Sequence record: PX871048.2
DNA: 43,596 nucleotides
Origin: a phage
Reading direction: 5' to 3' (one strand)
Below are positions 1 through 42,407 of this stretch, one piece after another. The notes beneath the pieces were generated by a model that saw only the letters and a list, made by a program, of their open reading frames with translations, did not search any database and had not been told where the DNA came from. A program made the translations under genes and the position numbers. How positions within the stretch are numbered: the first letter of the stretch is position 1; each line of letters begins with the position of its first letter.

Positions 1-2337
1 ATGGCTGATGTAGCTAGTTTAGTTGTAAAGGTATCAGAGCAAGGCGCGAAAGCTACATCTGACCGCCTTGATAATCTCTCCAAGTCGGCAAAAGTAGCAG
101 GGGCAGCCGTAGCTGGCCTCGCTTTCATCGTCGCCGCTACCGCGTACAAGGCCGCACAGGAACTGGTAGACTCCCAACGGCAACTGGACAAGATGTCCGC
201 CAGCCTGAAAACGCTAACCGGAAGCACGCAGGGTGCAAGACAGGCGTTAAGCATCCTGCAAGACTTCGCGCGCGACACTCCGTATGGCCTTGAACAGGCG
301 GTGGAGGGATTCCGCAAACTTGTGGCGCTTGGTCTTACACCGTCAGAAGAAGCGTTGCGCTCCTACGGAAACACCGCCGCCGCTATGGGTAAAGACCTAA
401 ATCAGATGATTGAGGCCGTTGCGGACGCCAGTACATTTGAATTTGAGCGCCTTAAAGAATTCGGCATCAAGGCCAAGCAAAACAAAGACGATGTTGAATT
501 TACATTCCAGGGCACTACTACGGTGGTTAAGAAGAGCGCTGCCGACATCGAGCAATACCTGCTCAACATTGGTAACGTAAACTTCGCGGGGGCTATGGCG
601 GACCAGGCCAACACACTTAACGGGGCCATCGCCAGTGCCAGCGATTCCTGGTCGCAGTTAAAAATGACACTGGCTACCAGCCTTGATGTTGGTGCTCTTG
701 CGGGGCCTATCCGGTACATCGATGATTTAATCCAGGAACTTAACGCACAGGTAGCATCCGGTGAACTCGCCGCCGAGATGCGTATGTGGGGTGTCATCGC
801 GTCGGAAGTAGGAAGCGCGATAGAGATGTCGTTCGATGCGGCATTTGGTTTCGTAGGTGATGCGATAAATGGACTTAATGAACTTTGGGATTTTAGCAGT
901 AAAAGTATCACCGACAGCGGCGAACAAACGGCGACAACCATCGCGGAATCAGCTGCCGATGCGCTCGATTTCATCGCAGAAGAATTTACCGCGATGGAGC
1001 GCTTCTTTGAAGATATGGTTAAAGGGGCACAGGGCGCCGGGCGACTAGTGAAAGCAGCCTTCACACCGGGGGAATCTGTAGACGTCGCAAAAAACATTAA
1101 CTTCCAGCTGGGTATGGCACTGGATACTCAGCGTGATGTTGCGGACCTGACCCGTAAAAGTTTCCGCGAACAGGTGGAGGCCCAGCAAAATATTGTCGCG
1201 CTTAAACGCGCAGCATATGACATCGACAAAGAAGCCGCTAAGGAAGAAGGGCTTAGTAAATTTAAGGTAACTGGTACTGGTGGCGGGTCCGAAGATGATA
1301 ACGCTAGCGCAAAAGCCGCCAAGAAAGCTGCGGATGCGTTCGAGCGCCAGAAGAAAGCCGCTGAGGATTTCTACTACCAGTCGATTCATCTCAATGATGA
1401 CGTATTCCAGAAAATAGAAGCCAACCAGGAACAGCAGTTAACCAAGCTACAGGAGTTTTACGGCAATCAGCTTCTTAGCGACCAGCAATACGAAAACGCC
1501 AAAACTCAGATTATGCTGGAAGCGGATACTGCTCGCCAGGAGGAACTCGCTAAGCGAGAGAAAGAAAGGCAGGAAAAGAACCAGAAAGGCGAGGACTTCA
1601 TGGCTCAGATTATGGGCCAGAACGCCGCTGAGCTTGAGCTTCTGGAGATTCAGGAGCAACAAAAACTTGACGTTGCAGACAAATACCGCGAACAGAACCT
1701 TATTAACGAGGAGCAGTACCAAGCAGCGGTTAACGCGATAAATGACCAGTACGCATTGAAACGCGCCAACGCGACAGGTAATGCTTTCGGGATGATGGCG
1801 GATAATATTAAGTCGTCTCTCGGCGAAGCGTCTACGGCGTACAAAGCGTTTGCTATCGCCCAGGCCACCATAGCCACATACACATCCGCTATAGAGGCAT
1901 ATAAGTCCGCGTCCGCGATTCCTATTGTCGGCTGGGTGCTCGGCCCGGTGGCTGCTGCCGCAGCCGTAGCAGCGGGTCTGGCGAACATTGGTAAGATTCG
2001 CTCCGCACGTGAACAGGGGGGTAACCTAGCCGCCGGTCAGTTATCTACCATCGCAGAACGAAACAAACCAGAAGTTATCATGCCAGCAGGCGCATCGCGT
2101 GTTCGCACCGCACAGCAAATGAAAGAGATTATGGGCGAGAACGGCAACAAGTCAGGCGGTGACAGCGTTACAATCGTCAACAACACCACCGGACGTGTTG
2201 ATTCCGCCGTTACAGAGCGTGACGACGAAGGGCGGTTACGTGTTATCATCAGCGAAACAGTATCGGCGGCGTTACAAGACAGCAACAGTGCAATCTCTAA
2301 GTCACGCCGTGCTACACGAAACCAGCCGGGGTATTAA
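1..2337 (+). CDS. tail tape measure protein
   Basis: 778-aa ORF, long A/E/K/Q-rich coiled-coil-like stretches, internal hydrophobic segment GWVLGPVAAAAAVAAGLANIG, sits between putative chaperone ORFs (window end) and tail genes. Confidence 0.8.
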   Translation: MADVASLVVKVSEQGAKATSDRLDNLSKSAKVAGAAVAGLAFIVAATAYKAAQELVDSQRQLDKMSASLKTLTGSTQGARQALSILQDFARDTPYGLEQAVEGFRKLVALGLTPSEEALRSYGNTAAAMGKDLNQMIEAVADASTFEFERLKEFGIKAKQNKDDVEFTFQGTTTVVKKSAADIEQYLLNIGNVNFAGAMADQANTLNGAIASASDSWSQLKMTLATSLDVGALAGPIRYIDDLIQELNAQVASGELAAEMRMWGVIASEVGSAIEMSFDAAFGFVGDAINGLNELWDFSSKSITDSGEQTATTIAESAADALDFIAEEFTAMERFFEDMVKGAQGAGRLVKAAFTPGESVDVAKNINFQLGMALDTQRDVADLTRKSFREQVEAQQNIVALKRAAYDIDKEAAKEEGLSKFKVTGTGGGSEDDNASAKAAKKAADAFERQKKAAEDFYYQSIHLNDDVFQKIEANQEQQLTKLQEFYGNQLLSDQQYENAKTQIMLEADTARQEELAKREKERQEKNQKGEDFMAQIMGQNAAELELLEIQEQQKLDVADKYREQNLINEEQYQAAVNAINDQYALKRANATGNAFGMMADNIKSSLGEASTAYKAFAIAQATIATYTSAIEAYKSASAIPIVGWVLGPVAAAAAVAAGLANIGKIRSAREQGGNLAAGQLSTIAERNKPEVIMPAGASRVRTAQQMKEIMGENGNKSGGDSVTIVNNTTGRVDSAVTERDDEGRLRVIISETVSAALQDSNSAISKSRRATRNQPGY

Positions 2338-2340
2338 CCA

Positions 2341-3723
2341 ATGAGTGATTTGAGATTCCCTATGTCCCTTCGACCAATAGTGTCGAAGGGGTACTCCCAA
2401 ACGCGAGGGAGTAATATCTGGCGTACAGAAGTGCAAGGCGGCGTTCCGCGTCAGGGCCGAGACACATACTTCGAACCGGTGCCGATTAGCGTTACCCTGG
2501 TTGTGTCGTCACTAGGCCGCCAGGCTTTCTATAGCTTTCTGAATAACATAGACGGCGGGGCGTCTTCGTTCATCATGCCTCACGATACCGGTTTAGGTAT
2601 CGAAGACCACCAGGTTCTTATTACGTCTGATATTAGCGATAGCACTGACGATGGTAAGAACTGGGTGATTACGTTCACTGCTACGGCAGAGAGAACAGCG
2701 ATTCAGGAAGATACATGCTTTACGAAGAATCTGCCAGATTTGTTCGGTTGCTACGGCGATTATTTAGGTAGTTTTCTGAAAATATACGCGAACTATGAGA
2801 CTACGTTCCCGCGCATCTGGAGCGATGAAGGGCCCGCAGGATACCCGCCGATTAACCTTCTGGCGTCCGCCCTGGATAGCCGCATTGTGTACGACGGGCC
2901 GCAGGTTTATTACATCAACCGAAACGGCAATCTTGTGCAGTCCGCGGCTAATGAATGGCCTCTTACGTTTATTGATGGTGTCGCTGTCGGGCGTGTGCCG
3001 CCAGAAGGTGCCTCGCGCAATTTGTACATAAATTCGGAAACATGGGCAACTGGACTCCAAACATCTGTGCGGAATAATGCCGAAGTATCACCTCGCGGCG
3101 ATATAACTATGGCGGAAGTCACTGCGACAACTTCAAACTCTGAGCATTTCGCTAACGACAGGGCAATAGGGGTGCAGCAAGATGAGCTGTATTCATATTC
3201 AATATTTGTAAAAGCCGCTAGCGACCCACTAAACCTTTACCTAAGGGTGACAGCGGGCACCGTAGCGAGCACAATGTTCAACCCTGTTACTGGCGCATTT
3301 GTCGCGAACTTAGGAGTTAATTTTGTATCAAAAAATGCCGTTAGGGTTTCCGAGGACACATATAGGGTAACAATGGTCTTCCGGGCTGGCGCAACTAGAA
3401 ACTCTGTTATCCGTGTGCAGCTTGCATCTAGTGTGTCCCCAATATTCGCGGGTACTGGGGGAAATGGCATTTATGTATGGGGGGCGCAGTTAGAGAAATC
3501 GGCAAATACTACCAGTTACATACAGACATCAGCTATTGCAGGAGATAGAGTATCGGCATCGGCAAAAGTAGTAATGAGCGGCGCAACGAGCATTGATATT
3601 ACCTATTCCGATGGTTCTGTGGTAAACGTTCCGTCTGTTAACGGCTACGCCACCATTCCGCAGGCCGATTCTGCGTGGGGGAGTAAATATATCACTCGCA
3701 TTGATTTTAACGTGGACGGTTAA
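2341..3723 (+). CDS. tail structural protein (position suggests distal tail protein)
   Basis: 460-aa ORF starting 4 nt after tape measure stop; synteny only. Confidence 0.5.
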   Translation: MSDLRFPMSLRPIVSKGYSQTRGSNIWRTEVQGGVPRQGRDTYFEPVPISVTLVVSSLGRQAFYSFLNNIDGGASSFIMPHDTGLGIEDHQVLITSDISDSTDDGKNWVITFTATAERTAIQEDTCFTKNLPDLFGCYGDYLGSFLKIYANYETTFPRIWSDEGPAGYPPINLLASALDSRIVYDGPQVYYINRNGNLVQSAANEWPLTFIDGVAVGRVPPEGASRNLYINSETWATGLQTSVRNNAEVSPRGDITMAEVTATTSNSEHFANDRAIGVQQDELYSYSIFVKAASDPLNLYLRVTAGTVASTMFNPVTGAFVANLGVNFVSKNAVRVSEDTYRVTMVFRAGATRNSVIRVQLASSVSPIFAGTGGNGIYVWGAQLEKSANTTSYIQTSAIAGDRVSASAKVVMSGATSIDITYSDGSVVNVPSVNGYATIPQADSAWGSKYITRIDFNVDG

Positions 3724-7218: not shown

Positions 7219-9033
7219 ATGTCAAGCGGATGCGGTGACGTTTTAAGCCTGGCGGATTTACAAACCGCCAAGAAACACCAGATTTTCGAAGCCGAGGTTA
7301 TCACCGGTAAATCCGGCGGCGTTGCTACGGGTGCCGATATTGATTACGCAACCGATGCTGTTACAGGGCAAACCCAGAAAACACTCCCCGCCGTGTTGCG
7401 TGATGCCGTATTTACTCCGGTTGCGTGGGATTTCTCTACAGGCGGTACGTTAACAGTTAATGACCGCAACAAAGTGGTTTATGACCCGGTGAGCAAAACG
7501 TGGTACTCGTATGCAGGTACGTTGCCGGTTGTTGTCCCGGCATCGTTTAACCCGGTTGGTAATGCTAACTGGAAGCCACAGACCGACCCTGACTTACGAC
7601 AGGATTTAGCGGCTACTACCGCGCAGAAAGGAGCAAGCCTTGTCGGATATAAATCACCAGTAGCAGGCTCCGTAGCTACGACCTTGCAGTCAAAAGAATC
7701 GGAATACGTCTCTGTGTATGACTTCGGGGCGAAAGCTGAACCCGGATTTGATAATGCCACGGCATTTGCATTAGTAAAAACTGCCGCGGAAGCAGGTATT
7801 ACAATTTTGTTCCCAGCTGGGACTTATGAAACATCATCCGAGCTTACATTCACGTCAGCAGTTAAACTTGTGGGTATGCCTGGTACACGTATTAAGATAA
7901 CTGCACCAGGAAAAGCTCATGTCATGTGCATTGACCTTCGCGGCCCAGTTGGTGATTACTGGGGTTACGGGGTGCACCTGGAAAACTTCATTCTTGACGG
8001 TAATGGTAATGCGGTAGATGGATTATCTCTGCGCGGTGTTATCTCATCACGCTTTGTTAATATACGTGCTACTAACGTTACTCGTGCCGGTTTACATCGT
8101 TGGTGGACTCAATTATGTACCTTTGAGAATTTCCAGTGCTCATCTAACGTTGAAGCATTTACTACTACACCTGTTTACGGAATCCTCACTGACTGTGAGT
8201 TTGATACCGGAAATGACCGTGGAAGCTCTGCAGATACGATTACTAACCCAGAAATAGAGCATGTATCCGGTACAGGCATATGTGGGGTGTTTGAGTCAAA
8301 CTCCGTATACATAAACGGTACATCTGAAGGTAATAATATCGGAATAGCTTTCGGTAATACTGATAGCCGAAACCAGTCTGTTAGTAATACTGTAATAGGT
8401 ATGGACCTTGAGGTTAACACGGCTACAGATATTCTACTTTATTCGAACACCTATGCTAACGACTTCATTGGTTTGAAGGCAGGATATAACTCTCCTAGCA
8501 TCCAGGTACAAGGTTCTTTTGGGAATAAGTGGCTTGGCGGTTCATGTGCTGGTATTGATTTTTATAGCGAGTCCCATGATAACAGAGTGTATGGTGTTTC
8601 ACTGTTAGGCGAGGGGGCTGTAATAACAGATGCGGGGAGCCGCAACAAATACACTGATTGTTTTAATATTTCTACAGCAGCGGTCTCTGTATCAACAAAC
8701 CCTTACCCAAACCGCGGTAATAATGTTCTTGCTGCGAATGCCACCGCAACGATTGACCCTTACCGAGATAATCTTACTGTTGTTACCGCAACAAGTAGCC
8801 CTATTAATATTGTGTCCTCAACTACACCACTGGACGGCGCAAGAATGGATTTGGTAATCCATAATACAACTGGGTCGGATACCTTAGTTATCAACTGGTC
8901 TTCTGCGTTCAGGGTTGCTGGTTTTACAGCCCCCGCTGCCGGGAGACATCGTGGTATTTCCCTGGTCTATGATGCCAACTATGGCTACTGGTGTGTTGTT
9001 GGGATGGCAACGGCTGACGCAGTTAGCGTATAA
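7219..9033 (+). CDS. tailspike / tail fiber with pectate-lyase-like beta-helix (putative depolymerase)
   Basis: 604 aa; RBS AAAGAGG upstream; N-terminal anchor-like region then SVYDFGAKAEPGFDNATAF..LFPAGTYE typical of right-handed beta-helix glycanases; from memory. Confidence 0.7.
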   Translation: MSSGCGDVLSLADLQTAKKHQIFEAEVITGKSGGVATGADIDYATDAVTGQTQKTLPAVLRDAVFTPVAWDFSTGGTLTVNDRNKVVYDPVSKTWYSYAGTLPVVVPASFNPVGNANWKPQTDPDLRQDLAATTAQKGASLVGYKSPVAGSVATTLQSKESEYVSVYDFGAKAEPGFDNATAFALVKTAAEAGITILFPAGTYETSSELTFTSAVKLVGMPGTRIKITAPGKAHVMCIDLRGPVGDYWGYGVHLENFILDGNGNAVDGLSLRGVISSRFVNIRATNVTRAGLHRWWTQLCTFENFQCSSNVEAFTTTPVYGILTDCEFDTGNDRGSSADTITNPEIEHVSGTGICGVFESNSVYINGTSEGNNIGIAFGNTDSRNQSVSNTVIGMDLEVNTATDILLYSNTYANDFIGLKAGYNSPSIQVQGSFGNKWLGGSCAGIDFYSESHDNRVYGVSLLGEGAVITDAGSRNKYTDCFNISTAAVSVSTNPYPNRGNNVLAANATATIDPYRDNLTVVTATSSPINIVSSTTPLDGARMDLVIHNTTGSDTLVINWSSAFRVAGFTAPAAGRHRGISLVYDANYGYWCVVGMATADAVSV

Positions 9034-20486: not shown

Positions 20487-20653
20487 TTCACATTCTCCTT
20501 AACCCACGCTTCTACTTTATTTCGGTCAAACGTACCCGGCATACGGCGGCCCATTACTTTAACGCTGCAATCAGGAAACTTCCCGCTTTTAATCCAGTTA
20601 TTTATTGTCTGACGAGTAACTCCGATTAATTCTGCAACCTCGTTTATAGTCAT
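20483..20653 (-). CDS. AlpA/excisionase-like HTH DNA-binding protein
   Basis: MTINEVAELIGVTRQTINNWIKSGKFP; start set at ATG 20653 with AGGAG RBS (track start 20743 rejected). Confidence 0.55.
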   Translation of the reverse strand: MTINEVAELIGVTRQTINNWIKSGKFPDCSVKVMGRRMPGTFDRNKVEAWVKENVK

Positions 20654-20758
20654 TTCACGATCTCCTGTGTAAGATGTAGTGAAGTATAAAGCGGTAACTT
20701 TGTAAAAGCAACCAAAACAACACACAAAGCCACTAAGATACAAAAGATGCTACTGGGA

Positions 20759-20787
20759 TTGACTTTTACTTAAAAATGTGCTAAGCT
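20759..20787 (+). promoter_or_regulatory. promoter TTGACT-17-TGnTAAGCT (extended -10) driving structured element A
   Basis: same hexamers, spacing and TGn as the promoter at about 33037-33065. Confidence 0.45.
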
Positions 20788-20891
20788 TCACTGAGCTTGT
20801 GAGATATCGCAAGCGACCGCGGAGCGGCAGGGAACGCAACGCGTGCCATTAGGCACTTGAGTGTAGTTCCGCTGGCGCTTTCGGAAGGGCC
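20782..20891 (+). ncRNA. candidate structured RNA element A (paralog of 33060-33168)
   Basis: about 75 percent identical to copy B with conserved blocks GAGCTTGTGA, AAGCGACCGCGG, TTCGGAAGGGCC and a covarying hairpin GTGCC-ATTA-GGCAC vs GGAC-GTAA-GTCC; no ORF. Confidence 0.35.
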
Positions 20892-21066
20892 AAAGTCTAT
20901 TGTTAATCCCGCCTAAATACCCAAGTCACTGATAATTAAAGTTTCTATAGTTGCCGTAAGCGAGGTAGAGAGTACTTCACTCCGCTGTGGTGGGCTAACG
21001 CCCACCCACTGCGTTGCGTACTCTTTTAAGAAACGAAAGAATCACAACGGCAACGTAACTATTCTC

Positions 21067-21095
21067 TTGCACACCCCAACATAATAGGATACTAT
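21067..21095 (+). promoter_or_regulatory. sigma70-type promoter, class I (TTGCAC-17-TACTAT) with AATAG-N4-CTATT palindrome over -10
   Basis: TTGCAC ACCCCAACATAATAGGA TACTAT; identical 33-mer at 42676-42707 on minus. Confidence 0.65.
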
Positions 21096-21129
21096 TCACT
21101 TATCGAAACGAGACAGAGGAGTGAGGGTT

Positions 21130-21321
21130 ATGTTTAAAAAGGGTCAGTTGGTTAAAAGTGCCGACGGTAAACACGGCATAATTGAATTAAAATCATCTTT
21201 ATTTCCCGGGCAGTACGTAGTGACTGTGCAAAAGGTGAGAGGTGTAAATTCGAAAACATACGTAGCAGAGAGGAACTTAGAACTCATCGGCAACAATTTT
21301 AAATTCAAAGGGGCGAAGTGA
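21130..21321 (+). CDS. hypothetical early protein
   Basis: ATG with GAGGAG RBS; 63 aa. Confidence 0.5.
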   Translation: MFKKGQLVKSADGKHGIIELKSSLFPGQYVVTVQKVRGVNSKTYVAERNLELIGNNFKFKGAK

Positions 21322-24206: not shown

Positions 24207-24515
24207 TTGGATAAATTTACTGAAACAGTGACAGGCTGGCTTCTGGCTGCCGCGCTAGCCGGAGGGGTAATCGGGCTACGACAACATAAGTCCGCTATTT
24301 CCGGCCCTATCGACGGATTCTGCTTTATCGCAACTGGCTTCACTTGCGCTGTATTTGGCGCACCTCTTGCCGCTCAATGGTTTGGAATCACGGGCGACCG
24401 TGAAATCGCTGGCCTGGGCTTCATTATCGCTATTCTCTGGATGCCTATCTATTCCCGTCTCTCCGGTATCGTTGCCGGAGAATACATCGCGCGTCGAGGA
24501 GGCACAGATGAATGA
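24207..24515 (+). CDS. putative holin (three predicted TM segments)
   Basis: TTG start after GGAGGA RBS; 102 aa; immediately upstream of endolysin. Confidence 0.55.
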   Translation: MDKFTETVTGWLLAAALAGGVIGLRQHKSAISGPIDGFCFIATGFTCAVFGAPLAAQWFGITGDREIAGLGFIIAILWMPIYSRLSGIVAGEYIARRGGTDE

Positions 24516-24780
24516 GTTATTCTGGTTCGGCGGTATGCTGGCAATCGGGGGTACATCGCTGTTTAATGTGTACCATCCCAGCGTTGATGACGGGCTGTTC
24601 GGCCGGGTGCTCTATATCCTGACTGCTATCGTCTGCGCCGCCGGATGTATCCACCTGTTACAGGGCAGCATGTCACCAACACTGCCCGAGACATTAATCA
24701 CATTAGTTGCGCTACGCCAGATTCGCCAGGCGTGGTTATCGTACGGAGGACATAAGCGTGTCTCGAAACATTTCAGATAA
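24508..24780 (+). CDS. putative second holin/antiholin (two TM segments)
   Basis: ATG 24508 after GAGGAGG; 90 aa membrane protein between holin and endolysin. Confidence 0.45.
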   Translation: MNELFWFGGMLAIGGTSLFNVYHPSVDDGLFGRVLYILTAIVCAAGCIHLLQGSMSPTLPETLITLVALRQIRQAWLSYGGHKRVSKHFR

Positions 24781-25243
24781 TGGATTGCATTTCACCGCTG
24801 CGTTCGAGGGATTCCGCGGGACTGCGTATCGTGCTACGCCTAACGAGAAGTACCTTACCATAGGCTACGGTAATTACGGCCCGCATGTTAAGGCGGGGCA
24901 AACCATCACGCCGGGGCAAGGCCTCCTGTTACTGAATCGCGATATGGCTAAGGCCGTAGCTGCGGTTGATGCAGCAGCGCACCATTCGCTTACACAGGCA
25001 CAGTTCGATGCAGTGTGCGACCTGGTGTATAACGCAGGTGCCGGCGTGATTGCCGCTACCACTGGTACGGGTAAGGCGCTGCGCACAGGCGATATTGCGA
25101 CGCTGCGGGCTAAGCTAGCGCTGTTCATAAACCAGAACGGCAAACCGCTACTCGGCTTGCGTCGCCGTACAGCCGGGAGACTGGCATTATTTGACGGTAA
25201 ACCGTGGCAAGAGGCTGAGGCTATTGGGAGGGCTGTTAAATGA
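24758..25243 (+). CDS. endolysin, GH24 phage lysozyme family
   Basis: FEGFRG..YLTIGYG and C-terminal LGLRRRTAGRLALF resemble T4/P22-type lysozymes; GTG start 24758 after GGAGGA. Confidence 0.7.
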   Translation: MSRNISDNGLHFTAAFEGFRGTAYRATPNEKYLTIGYGNYGPHVKAGQTITPGQGLLLLNRDMAKAVAAVDAAAHHSLTQAQFDAVCDLVYNAGAGVIAATTGTGKALRTGDIATLRAKLALFINQNGKPLLGLRRRTAGRLALFDGKPWQEAEAIGRAVK

Positions 25244-25370
25244 TGGACGAATATGAAGGCGTTTAGTAAACTTATCCCTACGCTGCTTGTGCTTGCATAC
25301 TAAGCCCCGGTAAACCTGAAGCAGCAGCCCAAGCGGTGGAGACTGCGTAGGGTTCAGGGGCTTATGACCG

Positions 25371-25402
25371 AAACCCGGACCGCGAATCCGGGTTTTATTT
25401 TA
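25371..25402 (+). terminator. rho-independent terminator (ACCCGGA..TCCGGGT plus TTTTATTTT)
   Basis: hairpin plus T-run after lysis genes. Confidence 0.7.
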
Positions 25403-25475
25403 CCAATTGACACCTAAGACTAATCCGACGATACTTAAATCACCTCCTGTTCTATCCCTCTGCTCTCCAGTTTTA

Positions 25476-25509
25476 TCCCGGCCCTGACCCAGCCGGGATT
25501 TTTTTTATC
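25476..25509 (+). terminator. second rho-independent terminator (CCCGGC..GCCGGG plus T9)
   Basis: tandem to previous terminator. Confidence 0.75.
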
Positions 25510-25528
25510 CATTTTCTGCTATGACTAG

Positions 25529-25557
25529 TTGACTATTACCCTCGACCCTATTATATT
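25529..25557 (+). promoter_or_regulatory. sigma70-type promoter TTGACT-17-TATATT
   Basis: consensus-like hexamers; leader begins ATCGACAACGAGA like the leaders at 21067 and 22372. Confidence 0.55.
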
Positions 25558-25590
25558 TACTCCATCGACAACGAGAACGGAGTAGAGAAG

Positions 25591-31276: not shown

Positions 31277-32320
31277 ATGAGCTTACTTACATCCCTAATT
31301 AGCCACCAGATATGGCTACAACGCACCGCATCCGGCGAGGTGAAAGACCTTGCGCCGTTCATTCAGGAAATGCGGGACGAAATCAAACGGCAGGTGTTGC
31401 TGTTCGGCGACGACGGTCGCAGCACCGCGCGACTGAATAAACTGTTACGTGACCTCGAAGAAGCACTGACCGGGCTTACAGGCGACTGGCAAACGAAGCT
31501 GACAGAAGACCTAAAGGAACTGGCGGCGTATGAGGCCGAGTGGAACGTGAAGACACTGACGACTAACGTTAACGCGGAATTTGTTACGCCTACCGCCGAA
31601 CAGGTGTGGGCCGCTGCCGAGTTTCAGCCCTTATCATTAAGTGACAAGCCCGTTGATTTCGCCAAGCTGATGGATGGCTGGGGTGAAACAGAAGTATCGC
31701 GACTGGTAACTGGTGTTAAGATGGGTTTCGTTCAAGGCCAAACCACACGGCAGATTGTTAAAAATGTCGTTGGCGCTGGCGGACTGGCGGACATCTCTGA
31801 GCGCAACGCAGCTACGGTAACCCGCACCGCGCTGTCGCACATATCCAACGAAGCACGCAACGAGACGTACCGTCAGAACGACGACATCATCGAGAAATAT
31901 GAATGGGTATCGACGCTTGACAGCCGTACCAGTACGATTTGCAGAGCCAGGGACGGAATGACGTGGGAAATCGGTAAGGGGCCGATGCCCCCCGCCCATT
32001 TTGGCTGCCGAAGCACCACAGCACCTGTAATCAGTTCAGAATTCGACTTCCTCGATAAAGACGCAAAACGTGCAGCTAAGGGTGCGGACGGCGGAACTCA
32101 GGTAAGCGTGGACACCTCTTACTACGAGTTCCTAAAACAACAACCGGCATGGTTTCAGGATGAAGCACTCGGTCCTGTTCGCGGTAAGATTTTCCGCAAC
32201 AGCGGTATATCGCCGGAAGAGTTTCGCGTAATATCTGTAGATGGTTTCGGGAATCCGCTTACGCTTAAGCAGATGGCGGAACTCGATAAACGTGTTGCTG
32301 ATTATCTGAAAGGGGAATAA
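31277..32320 (+). CDS. head morphogenesis protein (Mu F-like minor head protein)
   Basis: position after portal; CxxC-like STICRARDG..HFGCRST; RBS CAGGAGGG. Confidence 0.6.
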   Translation: MSLLTSLISHQIWLQRTASGEVKDLAPFIQEMRDEIKRQVLLFGDDGRSTARLNKLLRDLEEALTGLTGDWQTKLTEDLKELAAYEAEWNVKTLTTNVNAEFVTPTAEQVWAAAEFQPLSLSDKPVDFAKLMDGWGETEVSRLVTGVKMGFVQGQTTRQIVKNVVGAGGLADISERNAATVTRTALSHISNEARNETYRQNDDIIEKYEWVSTLDSRTSTICRARDGMTWEIGKGPMPPAHFGCRSTTAPVISSEFDFLDKDAKRAAKGADGGTQVSVDTSYYEFLKQQPAWFQDEALGPVRGKIFRNSGISPEEFRVISVDGFGNPLTLKQMAELDKRVADYLKGE

Positions 32321-32781
32321 TGATGGGCTTTTTCAAAGTAACTGACGTACCTTCGCGTCGCGTTGTCCAGTTTGCTCGCGTGTCTGGCTCCGGTGAGAAC
32401 GTGGTGTCTATTGGGGACGAAAGTGTACTAGGTACGCCAGTAGATGATATGCCGTTTGCAGATAAGACCGGTATTGCGCTACCCGCCGCGGGGATGCTTT
32501 ACGAGATTCCGTATCTGGCTGACGCCGGCGACGTGTATTTCTCTGTGCAACCGCAGGACACGGAACTGGCAGACGGCAGCGCAACTATCACTGTCGAAGT
32601 TAAGGCGGGCAAAGCACCGTATGCGCTGACCTGGTACAAAGACGGGAAGGAAGTGGTAAATGCCCCTGAAGAGGCCTTGTCTCTGACAGTTAATGCGGTC
32701 GGCGAATACTTCGTTAAAGTTACTGATGCCGATGGTGTGGAGGCTGTTAGTAAAGCGGCGAAGGTCATTAAGCCAGAATAA
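32320..32781 (+). CDS. Ig-like domain protein (possible capsid decoration)
   Basis: C-terminal YALTWYKDGKEV..GEYFVKVTDADG resembles Ig-like domains. Confidence 0.45.
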   Translation: MMGFFKVTDVPSRRVVQFARVSGSGENVVSIGDESVLGTPVDDMPFADKTGIALPAAGMLYEIPYLADAGDVYFSVQPQDTELADGSATITVEVKAGKAPYALTWYKDGKEVVNAPEEALSLTVNAVGEYFVKVTDADGVEAVSKAAKVIKPE

Positions 32782-32784
32782 ACT

Positions 32785-32810
32785 GAAGCCCCGTTAAGGG
32801 GCTTTATTTC
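32785..32810. terminator. bidirectional terminator (AAGCCCC-GTTA-AGGGGCTT)
   Basis: hairpin plus T-rich tail; also ends the convergent minus small gene. Confidence 0.65.
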
Positions 32811-32819
32811 CATCAGAGT

Positions 32820-32915
32820 TCACCATTCCCCTCTATCTGCATCCTCAACCCCGCTAATAGCCCACACAAACAATCCTAAATTAACCAGTAACACAAATGA
32901 AATTGCTATCATCAT
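32820..32915 (-). CDS. small membrane peptide (31 aa), moron
   Basis: GGAGGTGG RBS then ATG; single TM; track start 33005 lies upstream of the promoter so internal ATG used. Confidence 0.45.
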   Translation of the reverse strand: MMIAISFVLLVNLGLFVWAISGVEDADRGEW

Positions 32916-32941
32916 AACCACCTCCACTAGGCATTTACTGA

Positions 32942-32970
32942 ATAGTACGCTATTATGTTGGGGTGTGCAA
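32942..32970 (-). promoter_or_regulatory. sigma70-type promoter, class I (TTGCAC-17-TACTAT) with palindrome
   Basis: minus-strand reading TTGCAC ACCCCAACATAATAGCG TACTAT. Confidence 0.65.
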
Positions 32971-33022
32971 ACTATTTGTTTACGTATTCCAGTTATTCCG
33001 CTCAATTGTAAATGTTGGAATA

Positions 33023-33038
33023 AACTATTCGAATAGTT
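33023..33038. promoter_or_regulatory. perfect 16-bp palindrome AACTATTCGAATAGTT (reversed half-site order) overlapping -35 of element B promoter
   Basis: exact inverted repeat. Confidence 0.5.
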
Positions 33039-33065
33039 GACTTTTCACTAAAAATATGATAAGCT
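33037..33065 (+). promoter_or_regulatory. promoter TTGACT-17-TGnTAAGCT driving structured element B
   Basis: same architecture as 20759-20787. Confidence 0.45.
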
Positions 33066-33168
33066 CCACCTGAGCTTGTGAAGTATGAACAAGCGACCGC
33101 GGCGCGGGCAGGTAACGGAGCGGGACGTAAGTCCTGAGTGTAGTTACGCTGACGCGTTCGGAAGGGCC
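33060..33168 (+). ncRNA. candidate structured RNA element B (paralog of 20782-20891)
   Basis: conserved blocks and compensatory stem changes relative to copy A; no ORF. Confidence 0.35.
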
Positions 33169-33243
33169 GTACCCTATTGCTTGTGTAAAAAGTAACTGGT
33201 TTACTGAGATTACGCCGTTTCTATGTTTAAATGATAAGGACTA

Positions 33244-33272
33244 GCGCCCCGCTTTATGGCGGGGCTTTACTT
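33244..33272 (+). terminator. rho-independent terminator (GCGCCCCGC-TTTATG-GCGGGGC plus T-rich)
   Basis: hairpin between element B and spanin start. Confidence 0.55.
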
Positions 33273-33289
33273 ATCGAGAAAGGAGAAAC

Positions 33290-33676
33290 ATGAATCTTAA
33301 AGCAACTGTCGTAGCGGGGGCATGTTTCATCATCCTGGCTTACGCACACGGCATCTACCAGTACCGCAGCGGCTGGAACGAAGGCCGGGCTAATCTAGCT
33401 TCACAGCAACAGCGGAAAGCACAGACCGAGTTAGCGAAGAAAACACAACGGCAGCAGCAGGACGAATCGAAGGCCGCGGCCGCTGACAACGAAGGCAAGA
33501 CGAAATCAGAGGTAATTACCCGTGAAGTCGTTAAGTACATTAAAACGCCTGGCCGCAGCGTGTGCACTTTCGACGATGCTCGCGTCCTGCTCAAGTCCCG
33601 CGCCGTCACCAACGCCAATTCCATCCCCGGATACGACAATGATGCAGCCGCCGTGCAAGCTGGCACCGCCAAGTAG
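33290..33676 (+). CDS. i-spanin (Rz-like)
   Basis: N-terminal TM (ATVVAGACFIILAYAHGIY), Q/K/E-rich periplasmic segment, overlapping lipoprotein gene in +1 frame; RBS AGGAG. Confidence 0.65.
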   Translation: MNLKATVVAGACFIILAYAHGIYQYRSGWNEGRANLASQQQRKAQTELAKKTQRQQQDESKAAAADNEGKTKSEVITREVVKYIKTPGRSVCTFDDARVLLKSRAVTNANSIPGYDNDAAAVQAGTAK

Positions 33677-33785
33677 CGACGCGGACGAGGATTTGGCTAT
33701 CGACGTTCAGAACGCCGAATGCGTACGGCAACTGAGACTGAAAGTGTTCATGTTGCAGGATTACGTGAGGAATATTCTGGAATAG
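33522..33785 (+). CDS. o-spanin (Rz1-like outer-membrane lipoprotein)
   Basis: GTG start after GAGGT RBS; signal peptide with lipobox LAS-C; Pro-rich mature part; overlaps and extends past the Rz-like gene. Confidence 0.65.
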   Translation: MKSLSTLKRLAAACALSTMLASCSSPAPSPTPIPSPDTTMMQPPCKLAPPSSDADEDLAIDVQNAECVRQLRLKVFMLQDYVRNILE

Positions 33786-33867
33786 TTGCCTTGCATGTTG
33801 GAATAATTTATTCTTGACATGTAAATCCGGGTGGCCCGGGTTCCAACGTCCAGGGGACATACTGACT

Positions 33868-34569
33868 ATGAATCGTTTTTTACGTTATCCGTTCCAGGAA
33901 GAAGCTGGGGCAGAAGATAAAGCCGGTGGCGGTGGCGCACCGAAAATGTTCACCGCTGAAGAAGTTCAGGCGCTGATTGAGAAAGAAGTCGCCGGGCTTA
34001 AGGCTAATCAGGAAGCGTTGCTGGCGGAGAAGAAAGAAGCCGCTCGCAAAGCAAAAGAGGCCGAAGAAGAACGGCAGCGCGCACACCAGGAGGCGTTAAA
34101 AGCCGCTGGTAAGATGGACGAGTTCGAAAAAACGATTCGTAGCCAGTATGACCCGGTGTTAGCCGAGAAAGATGGTCGCATCTCCAGAATGGCAGAGCGC
34201 ATCCTCGGCAGCGAACGTAAAGCGGTGTTAGGCTCTTTCGCGGGTGACTTTATCACCCCGGAAGCAGTGGACATCCTGGCTCCGTTCGTTAAGACTGAGT
34301 TTGAAGGCGATGACGTGGTTACTAAGTTTGTCGGCGCAGACGGCAACGTAATCACGACTGACCCGGAACAGTTCCGCAAATACCTGCGTGAACACAAAGC
34401 GTTTTCGCATTTGATTAAAGCAAATGCAGCTTCCGGCGGCGGGGCTTCCGGTAGCAAAGGCGGCGGGGCCGCACCAGCGTTTAAAGACATGAGCGAAGCG
34501 GAGCGTTTAGCTCTGTATAAATCGAACCCTGCCGAATTTGAACGGCAACTTAAAGCCCTGAGGAAATAA
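33868..34569 (+). CDS. scaffolding protein
   Basis: 234 aa, charged helical A/E/K-rich, immediately upstream of major capsid gene; start ATG 33868. Confidence 0.55.
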   Translation: MNRFLRYPFQEEAGAEDKAGGGGAPKMFTAEEVQALIEKEVAGLKANQEALLAEKKEAARKAKEAEEERQRAHQEALKAAGKMDEFEKTIRSQYDPVLAEKDGRISRMAERILGSERKAVLGSFAGDFITPEAVDILAPFVKTEFEGDDVVTKFVGADGNVITTDPEQFRKYLREHKAFSHLIKANAASGGGASGSKGGGAAPAFKDMSEAERLALYKSNPAEFERQLKALRK

Positions 34570-40795: not shown

Positions 40796-41280
40796 TATTT
40801 ATTGCTCCCGTGTGATTTTAAGTGTGTAGAGTTCCCGTTACAGTCGTATTCAGTAACCGCGTGCGTAGTGACTCCTAAGCCGCGGAAATGCTTAATCACC
40901 GCGGGCGAGTCGTCGAATGCGCACAATATTCTCTCCAGCCCGATAGCACGCAACACCTCTTCTTTAATTACGATGTCTTTTCTGTTGTCGTGTTTGCTGC
41001 GCATGATTAGCTGATAAAATTCGACGCGGTGGCGCTGCAGCCACATTCTGGTTTCTTTTTCTGCATCATCACTGCGGCCCGTTAAAATAATAACGGCATA
41101 GCGACGATTAAGGGCGTTACACAGTTCGATGTTATCTTTAATGGGCGCGTCATCTTTGCAGGCCATGTTAAAAGGCTTCCACGCCCATGTTTCGTTGTAG
41201 TTATCTTTCGGTAGCAGGTGTAAACGATGAGTACCGTCCGCCAATGTCCCGTCTAAATCGAAAATCACAATATCTTTCAT
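40795..41280 (-). CDS. HAD-superfamily phosphatase
   Basis: N-terminal FDLDGTL motif plus downstream ILTGR and FDD motifs. Confidence 0.6.
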   Translation of the reverse strand: MKDIVIFDLDGTLADGTHRLHLLPKDNYNETWAWKPFNMACKDDAPIKDNIELCNALNRRYAVIILTGRSDDAEKETRMWLQRHRVEFYQLIMRSKHDNRKDIVIKEEVLRAIGLERILCAFDDSPAVIKHFRGLGVTTHAVTEYDCNGNSTHLKSHGSNK

Positions 41281-42407
41281 CCCAGCATCTCCGGTGAAAT
41301 AGTTAAACGTGCAACCTCACCATATTCGGCGCTATAAGTAATTACATTTGCACTGCGCCCTGACATCCAACCGCCGCGTGAGGCATAGGCGTCTTTAGCC
41401 GCTAAGGTTCGGTGTTGCTCAACAATCATGTTACGGCTTTCTACAATCTTCTGATGGTGCAGGTGGCCTACGTGGGCGTAGCTGTAAACACTCTCTCCGA
41501 ACGCTTTGCGGAACTTAGCAATCATTACCGGTTCGATAGCGTCGAATCGTGCTTTATGCCCGTGATGGAAGAACAGCGTCGTTTTGCCGTGTTGCACCAT
41601 CTTGTAAACATCCGGCGACGTATCGACGAACACACGAGGCTCATTGTCGTACAGCGTGCTGAACATCTCAGCCAGCCAAATCATTCCGCTTTCGTCGTGG
41701 TTCCCTTGCACGATAAGCAAGCGAACATTTTTATGCTTAACGAGTGCCATATCAACAACACGGCGGACCATACGAATCATGTAGCGGACCAGTTTCTGAT
41801 AGCGCGTGTCCGCGTCAAGAACATGACCACTCGCTGGCGTAACCGCATCCAGGCTATCGAAGTGTGCAAGGTCACCTAGCAGATTAATAACACCCGTTCC
41901 TGCATCCGGCGCTTTCTGAAACGCAGCATCGAACCAGCGAGAGAACAGGTCTTCCGCAATCTTCATATCCCAGTCGTCGCCGCTCTCGTCGGCCCAGGCC
42001 AGCATACCGAGATGGAAATCAGACACAGTGTAAAGGTTGAGTAGTTTATCGTCGCGTTTAGCGCGGGCGGCTTTAACAGGCGCAACTGGCGTAATCTCTG
42101 ACTTCATGCCTTCGATTACGGCTTTCATCAACTCGACCTGACGTTCGGCGTCAGTGTCTGTCTTAACCCATTGCAACTTAGTGTTGCCGGACTCATCCAC
42201 CAGGGACGACGTCCCTTTAATCTTGTAGCCGTCAGGAACAAGGTGACTAACGTCACGCCCGTGACCCACGCCTTTCTTGGCCAGCTTCGCTTTACGGATA
42301 CGAATAACGCGGTCTGAGATGCCGTATTTACGGGCAATGTCGATATTCTTCATCCCGGCGTTCAATTCTTCCTGTAACTGTTCGTCGGTTATTTTCTTCC
42401 GGGCCAT
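41277..42407 (-). CDS. calcineurin-like metallophosphoesterase with N-terminal HTH
   Basis: DFHLG, GDLAHFD, GNHD, HHGH, GHLHH motifs; N-terminus IDIARKYGISDRVIRIRK. Confidence 0.6.
   Translation of the reverse strand: MARKKITDEQLQEELNAGMKNIDIARKYGISDRVIRIRKAKLAKKGVGHGRDVSHLVPDGYKIKGTSSLVDESGNTKLQWVKTDTDAERQVELMKAVIEGMKSEITPVAPVKAARAKRDDKLLNLYTVSDFHLGMLAWADESGDDWDMKIAEDLFSRWFDAAFQKAPDAGTGVINLLGDLAHFDSLDAVTPASGHVLDADTRYQKLVRYMIRMVRRVVDMALVKHKNVRLLIVQGNHDESGMIWLAEMFSTLYDNEPRVFVDTSPDVYKMVQHGKTTLFFHHGHKARFDAIEPVMIAKFRKAFGESVYSYAHVGHLHHQKIVESRNMIVEQHRTLAAKDAYASRGGWMSGRSANVITYSAEYGEVARLTISPEMLG

Follow-up and report, generated by a model that had tools for sequence, protein, structure and literature searches.

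The two overlapping genes at 33290-33785 of sequence record PX871048.2 very probably encode a two-component spanin of the 'Jersey' family in the overlapped arrangement, a functional assignment that is drawn from topology, gene architecture and family membership. The window analysed is the whole record of 43,596 bases, the complete genome of a Kagunavirus-like siphophage (Guernseyvirinae), and 8,047 nt separate the endolysin stop codon from the start of the i-spanin gene. Both the spanin pair and this unlinked layout are already known for Kagunavirus-type phages. Kongari 2018 (PMC6139136; BMC Bioinformatics 19:326) describes 'Jersey' as the largest overlapped family of i- and o-spanins, with 27 members that include K1G, K1H, K1ind1-3, SETP3 and Jersey. 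As early as 2010, the K1ind3 record (GU196281) carried two 'putative spanin' genes in the homologous place, the second flagged 'overlapping gene'; these are 387 and 264 nt long, the same lengths as the PX871048.2 pair. The spanins of phage Jersey are annotated in the same way, as are those of phage Snoke (Texas A&M annotation, with the remark 'Contains Lipobox motif' on the o-spanin), and the 2019 genome announcement of the related phage Schulenberg reports spanins separate from holin and endolysin. The finding is thus correct but ordinary: phages of this group normally have this layout, and it has been published for them before.

The spanin locus is widely shared: 484 phage records match the 1.8 kb around it, and the E. 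coli phages M01, GZMU_E2010, RP180, SZH-1 and Bas70-76 do so at 94-99% identity. PHROG profiles identify the surrounding late structural genes, and the features of the two lysis loci and their neighborhoods are collected in Table 1. A tRNA/tmRNA scan returned none.

Table 1. Features of PX871048.2 discussed in the text, in order of position.
Feature	Position	Strand	Basis or remark
Tape-measure gene	1		PHROG profile
Second copy of promoter and leader core	20759..20896	+	Promoter 20759-20787, leader core 20810-20896; 78% identity over 147 nt
Holin candidate 1	24207..24515	+	phrog_2359, E=1e-29
Holin candidate 2 (or antiholin)	24505..24780	+	phrog_2508, E=2e-33
GH24 endolysin	24707..25243	+	PF00959, E=7e-26; ORF as listed, start may differ
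Terminator 1 after endolysin	25370-25396	+	Stem and U-tract, -14.4 kcal/mol
Terminator 2 after endolysin	25475-25499	+	Stem and U-tract, -13.8 kcal/mol
Small terminase	27584	+	PHROG profile
Large terminase	28168	+	PHROG profile
Portal	29431	+	PHROG profile
Head morphogenesis	31220	+	PHROG profile
Hoc-like decoration protein	32320-32781	+	PHROG profile
Palindrome GGAATA-N3-TATTC, upstream copy	33017..33030		Conserved
Sigma-70-like promoter	33037..33065	+	TTGACT 33037-33042, 17 nt ending TGn, TAAGCT 33060-33065
Structured leader RNA core	33090..33173	+	Covariance model, 110 bits
GC-rich hairpin GCCCCGC/GCGGGGC	33246..33265	+	-17.9 kcal/mol; weak U-tract
Ribosome-binding site of i-spanin, AAGGAG	33280..33285	+	Conserved as AAGGAG or AAGGGG
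i-spanin gene, 128 aa	33290..33676	+	phrog_2536, hydropathy, annotated homologues
Ribosome-binding site of o-spanin, GAGG	33509..33512	+	Inside i-spanin CDS, 9 nt before GTG
o-spanin gene, 87-aa precursor, GTG start	33522..33785	+	phrog_1267, phrog_5672, lipobox rule, Kongari 2018
Palindrome GGAATA-N3-TATTC, downstream copy	33800..33813		Invariant across Kagunavirus and Jerseyvirus
Scaffold	Listed ORF from 33814, likely ATG 33868	+	PHROG profile
Major head protein	34572	+	PHROG profile

The product of the first gene begins with MNLK, so that Lys4 precedes the membrane helix, and continues with a hydrophobic stretch at approximately residues 5-23 and a charged, Gln-rich region that runs to the end. 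The Kyte-Doolittle 15-residue maximum is 2.21 at residues 5-19 and other hydrophobic segments are absent; by this rule-based hydropathy reading the protein has the single N-terminal membrane helix of a type II inner-membrane protein. A single-sequence AF2 model of low confidence (mean pLDDT 61, below 55 past residue 60) comprises helices at 3-84 and 94-104 and a disordered tail, and is helical across the membrane segment. The protein matches phrog_2536, 'Rz-like spanin', over its entire length (E=3e-54, residues 1-128 of 128), and weak profile links tie it to three other Rz-like spanin families, phrog_1152, phrog_8821 and phrog_214. It is 94% identical to its K1ind3 homologue and 63% identical to that of Jersey, and its one periplasmic cysteine, Cys92, is conserved in relatives. 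In a Pfam scan of both spanins with E up to 0.1, the lambda Rz (Phage_lysis) and Rz1 models were unmatched; the best match was DUF2514 (E=0.054, below the threshold of that model), and the rest were unrelated weak matches.

The second open reading frame, which is in the +1 frame because it begins 232 nt into the first, shares 155 nt with the i-spanin gene and extends 109 nt beyond its end. Its predicted precursor begins MKSLSTLKR-LAAACALSTMLAS-C23, with a positive n-region and an uncharged h-region leading to the lipobox L20-A21-S22-C23. The +2 residue is Ser24, and thus the Asp signal for inner-membrane retention is absent. The mature part contains 10 prolines in 65 residues, a Pro-rich linker, and Cys45, Cys67 and the C-terminal helix region are conserved, so that with Cys92 of the i-spanin the periplasmic cysteines for possible intermolecular disulfides, themselves predicted, are present in both partners. 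The protein aligns with phrog_1267 over residues 8-86, signal peptide included (E=1e-18), and over residues 41-87 with phrog_5672, a 47-residue family built from short calls. The lipoprotein call is rule-based. When a strict lipoprotein rule was run over the whole genome in six frames, three open reading frames matched, of which only 33522-33785 is credible: the other two were discounted because they lie on the strand opposite to the local genes and lack an n-region or a continuous h-region. Many GenBank records shorten the o-spanin to a 47-48-aa product that has no signal peptide.

To follow both frames across relatives, we gathered 51 related loci from GenBank and IMG/VR and confined the frame analysis to the 43 distinct sequences of equal length, leaving out the indel-bearing Jersey-type phages. 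The +1 frame of 33522-33785 is free of stop codons in 43/43 of these sequences, as compared with 6-11 stops in the +2 frame. Of these sequences, 41 start with GTG and 2 with ATG, always at the same position, and the Jersey-type phages outside the set have ATG there too. The GAGG that precedes it is conserved in all 43 and is annotated as a ribosome-binding site in phage Snoke. Codon-position variability is 0.27/0.21/0.59 in the part that belongs to the i-spanin only and 0.19/0.09/0.58 in the part that belongs to the o-spanin only, with third positions varying most in each part in the frame of its own gene, as in coding sequence; in the overlap the profile is flatter (0.30/0.26/0.49, i-spanin frame). 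The lipobox cysteine is kept in every relative despite a diverging signal peptide (LASC, LSAC, LSGC, LNGC, ITGC). Judged by these substitution patterns, both frames are under purifying selection. The open +1 frame, the conserved start and GAGG, the codon-position variability and the retained lipobox cysteine together argue that the gene is really translated into the long 87-aa form. One relative from IMG/VR (L041) is arranged differently: it has a shorter i-spanin, a different o-spanin N-terminus and an overlap of 14 nt only, a layout similar to that of the FSL_SP-031 variant, which is classed as 'separated' in Kongari 2018 (PMC6139136).

An earlier sequence-only reading of this DNA had proposed an Rz/Rz1-type pair, consisting of a product of 33290-33676 with an N-terminal membrane segment and a charged remainder, and an overlapping Pro-rich +1-frame lipoprotein with the lipobox LAS-C. 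The hydropathy profile bears out the first protein. The second is upheld by the lipobox, the n- and h-regions and the proline count, and the lipoprotein signal on which that reading had staked its claim is present by rule. Its choice of the GTG at 33522 as the o-spanin start is better than that of the many records that use an internal ATG at 33639. The label 'Rz/Rz1-type' holds for architecture and for the presumed function but does not hold for sequence family: since the Rz and Rz1 Pfam models are unmatched, the likeness to lambda is one of design.

The remaining lysis genes lie together in a cassette of two holin candidates and a GH24 endolysin, the latter devoid of an N-terminal hydrophobic segment, which is followed by two hairpin-U-tract terminators, each with a promoter-like site behind it (25407 and 25529). 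We found no membrane or lipoprotein signals in the small open reading frames downstream of the endolysin, and the genome-wide lipoprotein scan yields only 33522-33785 as a credible hit; a second spanin adjoining the endolysin is therefore absent. A unimolecular spanin of the T1 gp11 type was likewise considered and rejected for the 87-aa product, which ends in a charged, amphipathic region with no C-terminal hydrophobic segment, and no other open reading frame in the whole genome combines an N-terminal lipobox with a C-terminal membrane helix.

The place of the spanins in the head module is constant among relatives. The order Hoc-like gene, variable spacer, i- and o-spanin genes and scaffold is found in 50/50 loci that reach far enough upstream, the 51st ending before the Hoc-like position, and none of the 51 has an endolysin within 2.5 kb of the spanins. 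The major capsid gene follows the scaffold in most of these loci; six have a different scaffold/capsid type. In these six relatives, the same spanins precede scaffold and capsid genes of unrelated sequence, and the breakpoint coincides with the start codon of the scaffold gene. Phage Jersey has the same relative layout as PX871048.2, with holin-holin-endolysin at 41182-42221 and spanins at 7501-7996. More distant homologues occur in Dhillonvirus (Sodalis phage SO-1 gp05/gp06 and phiEco273; 33-54% identity over part of the i-spanin), where the spanins have the same place in the head module and a head morphogenesis gene, the spanins, sometimes an opposite-strand gene, the scaffold and the capsid gene follow one another. 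There, however, the start of the i-spanin gene overlaps the end of the head-morphogenesis gene, and a Hoc-like gene is not annotated between the two.

These comparisons agree with much of what the sequence-only reading had said about position. The pair does sit within the late structural module, between the gene it called Ig-like (here Hoc-like) and the scaffold gene, a place that all 51 related loci share; the holins and GH24 endolysin at 24207-25243 are indeed followed by terminators; and the rival spanin pair beside the endolysin that would have overturned it was not found in the downstream frames or the six-frame scan. Its description of the pair as displaced by about 8 kb is right in distance but not as a relocation, given a position conserved in Guernseyvirinae and Dhillonvirus. 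From this conservation the spanin position looks ancestral and not the product of a recent displacement, and a position so old and stable is better described as 'unlinked' than as 'displaced'.

We weighed three alternatives to the reading of the locus as a resident spanin pair. In the one that we consider least probable of all, translation would start only at the internal ATG at 33639; the resulting 47-48-aa product would not be a lipoprotein, and the pair would not be a canonical spanin. Several GenBank records (Bas70, phiWAO78-1) annotate this product, which has no signal peptide, phrog_5672 was built from such calls, and initiation at GTG is weaker than at ATG. Yet the 39 codons upstream of the internal ATG are open in each of the 43 distinct relatives, the GTG or ATG occupies the same 33522 position behind a conserved GAGG, the lipobox cysteine persists in every relative though the signal sequence diverges, and phrog_1267 aligns from residue 8; the curated Snoke, K1ind3 and Jersey records and Kongari 2018 (PMC6139136) also use the long form. 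It is very unlikely, too, that the pair has a job outside lysis, for example in superinfection exclusion, as a lipoprotein and its membrane partner, or as an assembly factor. Phage lipoproteins with exclusion functions are known, such as Llp of T5, the pair sits among head genes far from the endolysin, and the function of the Jersey family has been assigned from sequence features. Against these points stands the combination of a type II protein with an overlapped +1 lipoprotein, a Pro-rich linker and periplasmic cysteines, which is the defining signature of spanins (PMC6139136); the i-spanin is weakly linked to the three further Rz-like families, and the genome holds no other candidate for outer-membrane disruption.

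Also very unlikely is a recent insertion of the spanin cassette into the head module as a mobile, moron-like element, with 19-nt direct repeats as its footprint; we place its probability between those of the two alternatives above. The leader and spanins do lie between the repeats (33012-33030 and 33795-33813), a promoter and a hairpin belong to the cassette itself, and immediately upstream is a variable slot where extra genes occur. But all 51 Guernseyvirinae loci, and Dhillonvirus as well, have the spanins in this position, and no cassette-free related locus was found among the 51. The repeats were rejected as insertion scars: both are conserved palindromic sites beside promoter-like elements, and for this reason they look functional. 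The downstream palindrome, between the o-spanin stop and the scaffold, overlaps a promoter-like TTGCCT-17-TATTCT site. The exact motif GAATA-N3-TATTC occurs only twice in the whole genome, and six sites fit it with no more than one mismatch, where 0.97 would be expected by chance. The two GGAATA-N3-TATTC copies, both of them conserved in Jerseyvirus, stand on either side of the leader and spanins.

The reading as a Jersey-family spanin is also the closest fit among known systems. The PX871048.2 pair shares with this family its sequence family, the 155-nt overlap, Cys45/Cys67 and the place between Hoc-like and scaffold genes, and the secondary-structure elements fit; identity to phage Jersey is approximately 63-65%, and nothing material differs, the lipobox being LASC here and LNGC in Jerseyvirus members. 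For the Jersey family, Kongari 2018 (PMC6139136) reports two predicted helices and a linker in the i-spanin and, in the o-spanin, a Pro-rich linker, conserved cysteines at 45 and 67 and LNGC as a deviant lipobox. Lambda Rz/Rz1 is alike in pairing a type II inner-membrane protein with a +1-frame outer-membrane lipoprotein, in its periplasmic cysteines and in the presumed common role in the last step of lysis. It differs in that Rz1 is fully embedded in Rz, whereas the second gene here runs past the first, in that Rz/Rz1 come immediately after S and R within the lysis cassette while 8 kb intervene here, and in that sequence homology is undetectable with the Pfam Rz and Rz1 models. The LysB/LysC pair of P2 is overlapped as well, with an o-spanin gene that begins inside the i-spanin gene and extends beyond it, but it belongs to another sequence family and is part of the lysis cassette of P2. 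Precedents for spanins away from holin and endolysin are PseT.3/PseT.2 of T4, a separated pair, and gp18.5/18.7 of T7, an embedded pair whose genes lie between the two terminase genes; both are sequence-unrelated to the PX871048.2 pair. Kongari 2018 (PMC6139136) lists P2 among the overlapped spanin families and describes the T4 spanins as lying away from t and e.

The approximately 250 nt preceding the i-spanin gene are highly conserved and hold a promoter, a structured leader and a hairpin. The promoter at 33037-33065, which has an extended -10, is conserved in Kagunavirus and Jerseyvirus loci, and from its consensus motifs we infer that it heads a unit of leader, spanins, scaffold and capsid gene. 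The leader core forms one long irregular hairpin of helices P1-P2-P3, followed by an invariant UUCGGAAGG. With a covariance model built from ten Kagunavirus sequences, the alignment of the model matches has 95% of its cells paired and 11 of 23 pairs with changes on both sides (compensatory), compared with 27-42% paired in controls in which the 3' partners were slid by 1-3 columns; the alignment was fitted to the model, which favours structure. Different compensatory changes occur in each of the loci L007, L018 and L028, in the Jerseyvirus clade and in the second leader copy, and the G-U pairs in P1 fit a + strand RNA only. On this comparative evidence, the leader upstream of the spanins is a structured RNA backed by covariation. 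A 36-aa open reading frame at 33085-33195, annotated as a hypothetical protein in other records, was rejected as an explanation of the conservation: it has 1-nt indels in L011, L018 and L026, its ATG is missing in Jerseyvirus and in the second copy, and the substitutions compensate one another in the RNA.

Rfam covariance models run against 32500-34100 with E up to 1 were unmatched, and against 20650-21150 gave two matches far below threshold, neither of them on the leader core. The DNA pattern ACCGCG-N45-72-TYCGGAAGG, searched over IMG/VR, yielded at least 120 loci; the covariance model applied to 98 of the matches listed for this pattern recovered one, a Kagunavirus contig. The leader model was also unmatched in the SO-1 and phiEco273 loci. 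The 5' part of the leader has two alternative candidate pairings: it could form a local hairpin at 33074-33094, or it could join 33269-33283, beside the i-spanin ribosome-binding site, in a long-range helix. The GC-rich hairpin at 33246-33265, 25 nt before the i-spanin ATG, is 100% paired, with CG swapped for GC, UA and AU in relatives. Leaky termination, attenuation and RNA stabilisation are conceivable functions of this hairpin, which could limit spanin expression. A terminator-antiterminator switch between the P3 arm of the leader and this hairpin was rejected, as the alignments, compared by eye, show no joint change.

A second, paralogous copy of the promoter and leader heads the array that leads to the holins and endolysin. 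Its leader scores 74 bits (E=1e-16) against the covariance model, its promoter at 20759-20787 is near-identical to the one at 33037-33065, and a large hairpin with a U-tract follows near 20967-21030. Downstream, an uninterrupted + strand gene array consists of small genes and then holin-holin-endolysin. This second copy is present in a minority of Kagunavirus records (about 20 of 181 cover at least 80% of it), and phage Jersey has only the spanin-proximal copy. There is an outside chance that the leader is an undescribed cis-acting RNA module serving as the common control element of both separated lysis halves, a suggestion that we offer as tentative and on balance doubtful. Possible roles of the RNA are antitermination, RNase III processing, 5'-end stabilisation or action as a separate small RNA. 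The one Kagunavirus RNA-seq paper that we found leaves spanins and holins unmentioned, and the BASEL paper is silent on spanin expression.

The mechanism of lambda Rz/Rz1 is established, and by analogy with it the i-spanin would be held in the inner membrane by its N-terminal helix, with its helical domain projecting into the periplasm. The o-spanin precursor would be cleaved and lipidated at Cys23 and, because of the serine at +2, sorted to the outer membrane. Across the periplasm, i-spanin and o-spanin would then bind each other through their C-terminal parts, and Cys92 of the i-spanin and Cys45 and Cys67 of the o-spanin may form intermolecular disulfides. Once the holins had released the GH24 endolysin and the wall had been degraded, the spanin complex would fuse or disrupt the outer membrane. 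The spanins would be the first coding genes of a unit that comprises promoter, structured leader RNA, hairpin, spanins, scaffold and capsid gene. They stand outside the holin-endolysin cassette probably because in this lineage their place has always been in the head-morphogenesis module, directly before scaffold and capsid. As spanins would be harmless until the wall is gone, tight timing would be unneeded and synthesis with the late head proteins would suffice. Expression with the late structural genes or under the upstream structured element, as first proposed from the letters, is plausible.

The case illustrates that a reader given only the sequence can recognise an unlinked overlapped spanin pair and choose the correct GTG start. 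Kagunavirus and Jerseyvirus phages find use in therapy, in biocontrol and as synthetic-biology chassis, and correct o-spanin coordinates matter for genome editing or lysis engineering. The leader RNA is the sole part of the locus that could teach something new. If it controls read-through, processing or stability, for example through put-like antitermination or an RNase III site, both lysis halves would be co-controlled, and the leader could bear on late and lysis transcription in small virulent siphophages that have no known antiterminator proteins.

The spanin genes are directly preceded by a structured leader, in a stretch that other records call as a hypothetical protein of 36 aa, and a paralogous copy of this leader (copy 2) heads the operon that ends in the holin and endolysin genes. 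Each copy has a conserved promoter of sigma-70 type whose -10 element is extended and, after it, an irregular hairpin of ~85 nt in the RNA, a structure that covariation supports. An Rfam search with both copies returned no match. Phage Jersey and most Kagunavirus records carry only the spanin-proximal copy, whereas the window genome has two. The 5' end of the leader (33070-33094) can pair in two ways, either as a local hairpin (33074-33094) or as a long-range helix with 33269-33283, just before and partly within the i-spanin ribosome-binding site. The Jerseyvirus clade retains the two pairings although the sequence differs, and they may function as a switch or as a processing stem.

Exactly two copies of the palindrome GGAATA-N3-TATTC are present in the genome, one on each side of the leader and spanin cassette. 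Both adjoin TTGAC or promoter-like sequence and are kept in Jerseyvirus; the palindrome may be an operator for some phage regulator. Behind the endolysin gene, the lysis cassette ends in two strong intrinsic terminators, each with a good sigma-70-like promoter after it, so the cassette is predicted to close one transcription unit, with the next starting immediately after.

Coordinates of the features discussed (L-numbered loci in their own coordinates)
Feature	Locus	Position	Strand	Remarks
Promoter and leader, spanin-proximal copy	window	33037-33289	+	RNA core 33090-33173; motif and covariation
Promoter and leader, copy 2	window	20759-20896	+	RNA core 20810-20896; motif and covariation
Palindrome	window	33017-33030; 33800-33813
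Terminators and promoters after endolysin	window	25370-25560
Sigma-70-like promoter	window	25407		TTGACA-17-GATACT
Sigma-70-like promoter	window	25529		TTGACT-17-TATATT
Bidirectional terminator	window	32786-32804		between Hoc-like gene and leader
Shortened o-spanin call	L002 (Bas70)	2209-2352		window equivalent 33639-33785
Shortened o-spanin call	L001 (phiWAO78-1)	2201-2347		window equivalent 33639-33785
Variant spanin locus	L041 (IMGVR_UViG_3300045988_013393)	2501-3089
Dhillonvirus spanin locus	L174 (Sodalis phage SO-1)	2812-3253
Dhillonvirus spanin locus	L175 (phiEco273)	2986-3315

Many deposited Kagunavirus genomes call the o-spanin from an internal ATG, giving a 47-48-aa product without the signal peptide and lipobox, and phrog_5672 (PHROG) appears to derive from these shortened calls; the i-spanin is labelled 'hypothetical' in some. 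In the variant locus L041, the i-spanin is shorter (118 aa) and the o-spanin has an unrelated signal peptide (MTMNKLFLSAVIIGITGC) and the conserved C-terminus; the two genes overlap by only 14 nt, similar to the separated FSL_SP-031 variant (Kongari 2018). Distant homologues of the pair occupy the same head-module position in the Dhillonvirus phages SO-1 and phiEco273, where the start of the i-spanin gene overlaps the end of a head-morphogenesis gene. A covariance-model search did not find the leader RNA at either spanin locus, and the o-spanin is wholly unannotated in the phiEco273 record.

Upstream, the spacer after the Hoc-like gene ranges from ~320 to 1120 nt across relatives. In the window, the part between the Hoc-like gene and the leader (32786-33005) contains the bidirectional terminator and a slot of variable content that can accommodate a gene on the opposite strand. 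It is occupied here by a small ORF on the minus strand with a strong GGAGG upstream, whose product is likely a 31-aa membrane peptide (MMIAISFVLLVNLGLFVWAISGVEDADRGEW); in phage Snoke, a sliding-clamp-like gene takes its place. Downstream, six Kagunavirus-like contigs (L015, L018, L022, L029, L033 and L035) keep this Hoc-like gene, leader and spanin pair and differ in the scaffold, which shows about 40% identity or a short match only; beyond their o-spanin genes, nothing matched the major capsid protein. The breakpoint coincides exactly with the start codon of the scaffold gene, a pattern suggestive of mosaic exchange in which capsid genes are swapped and the conserved intergenic region acts as the junction.
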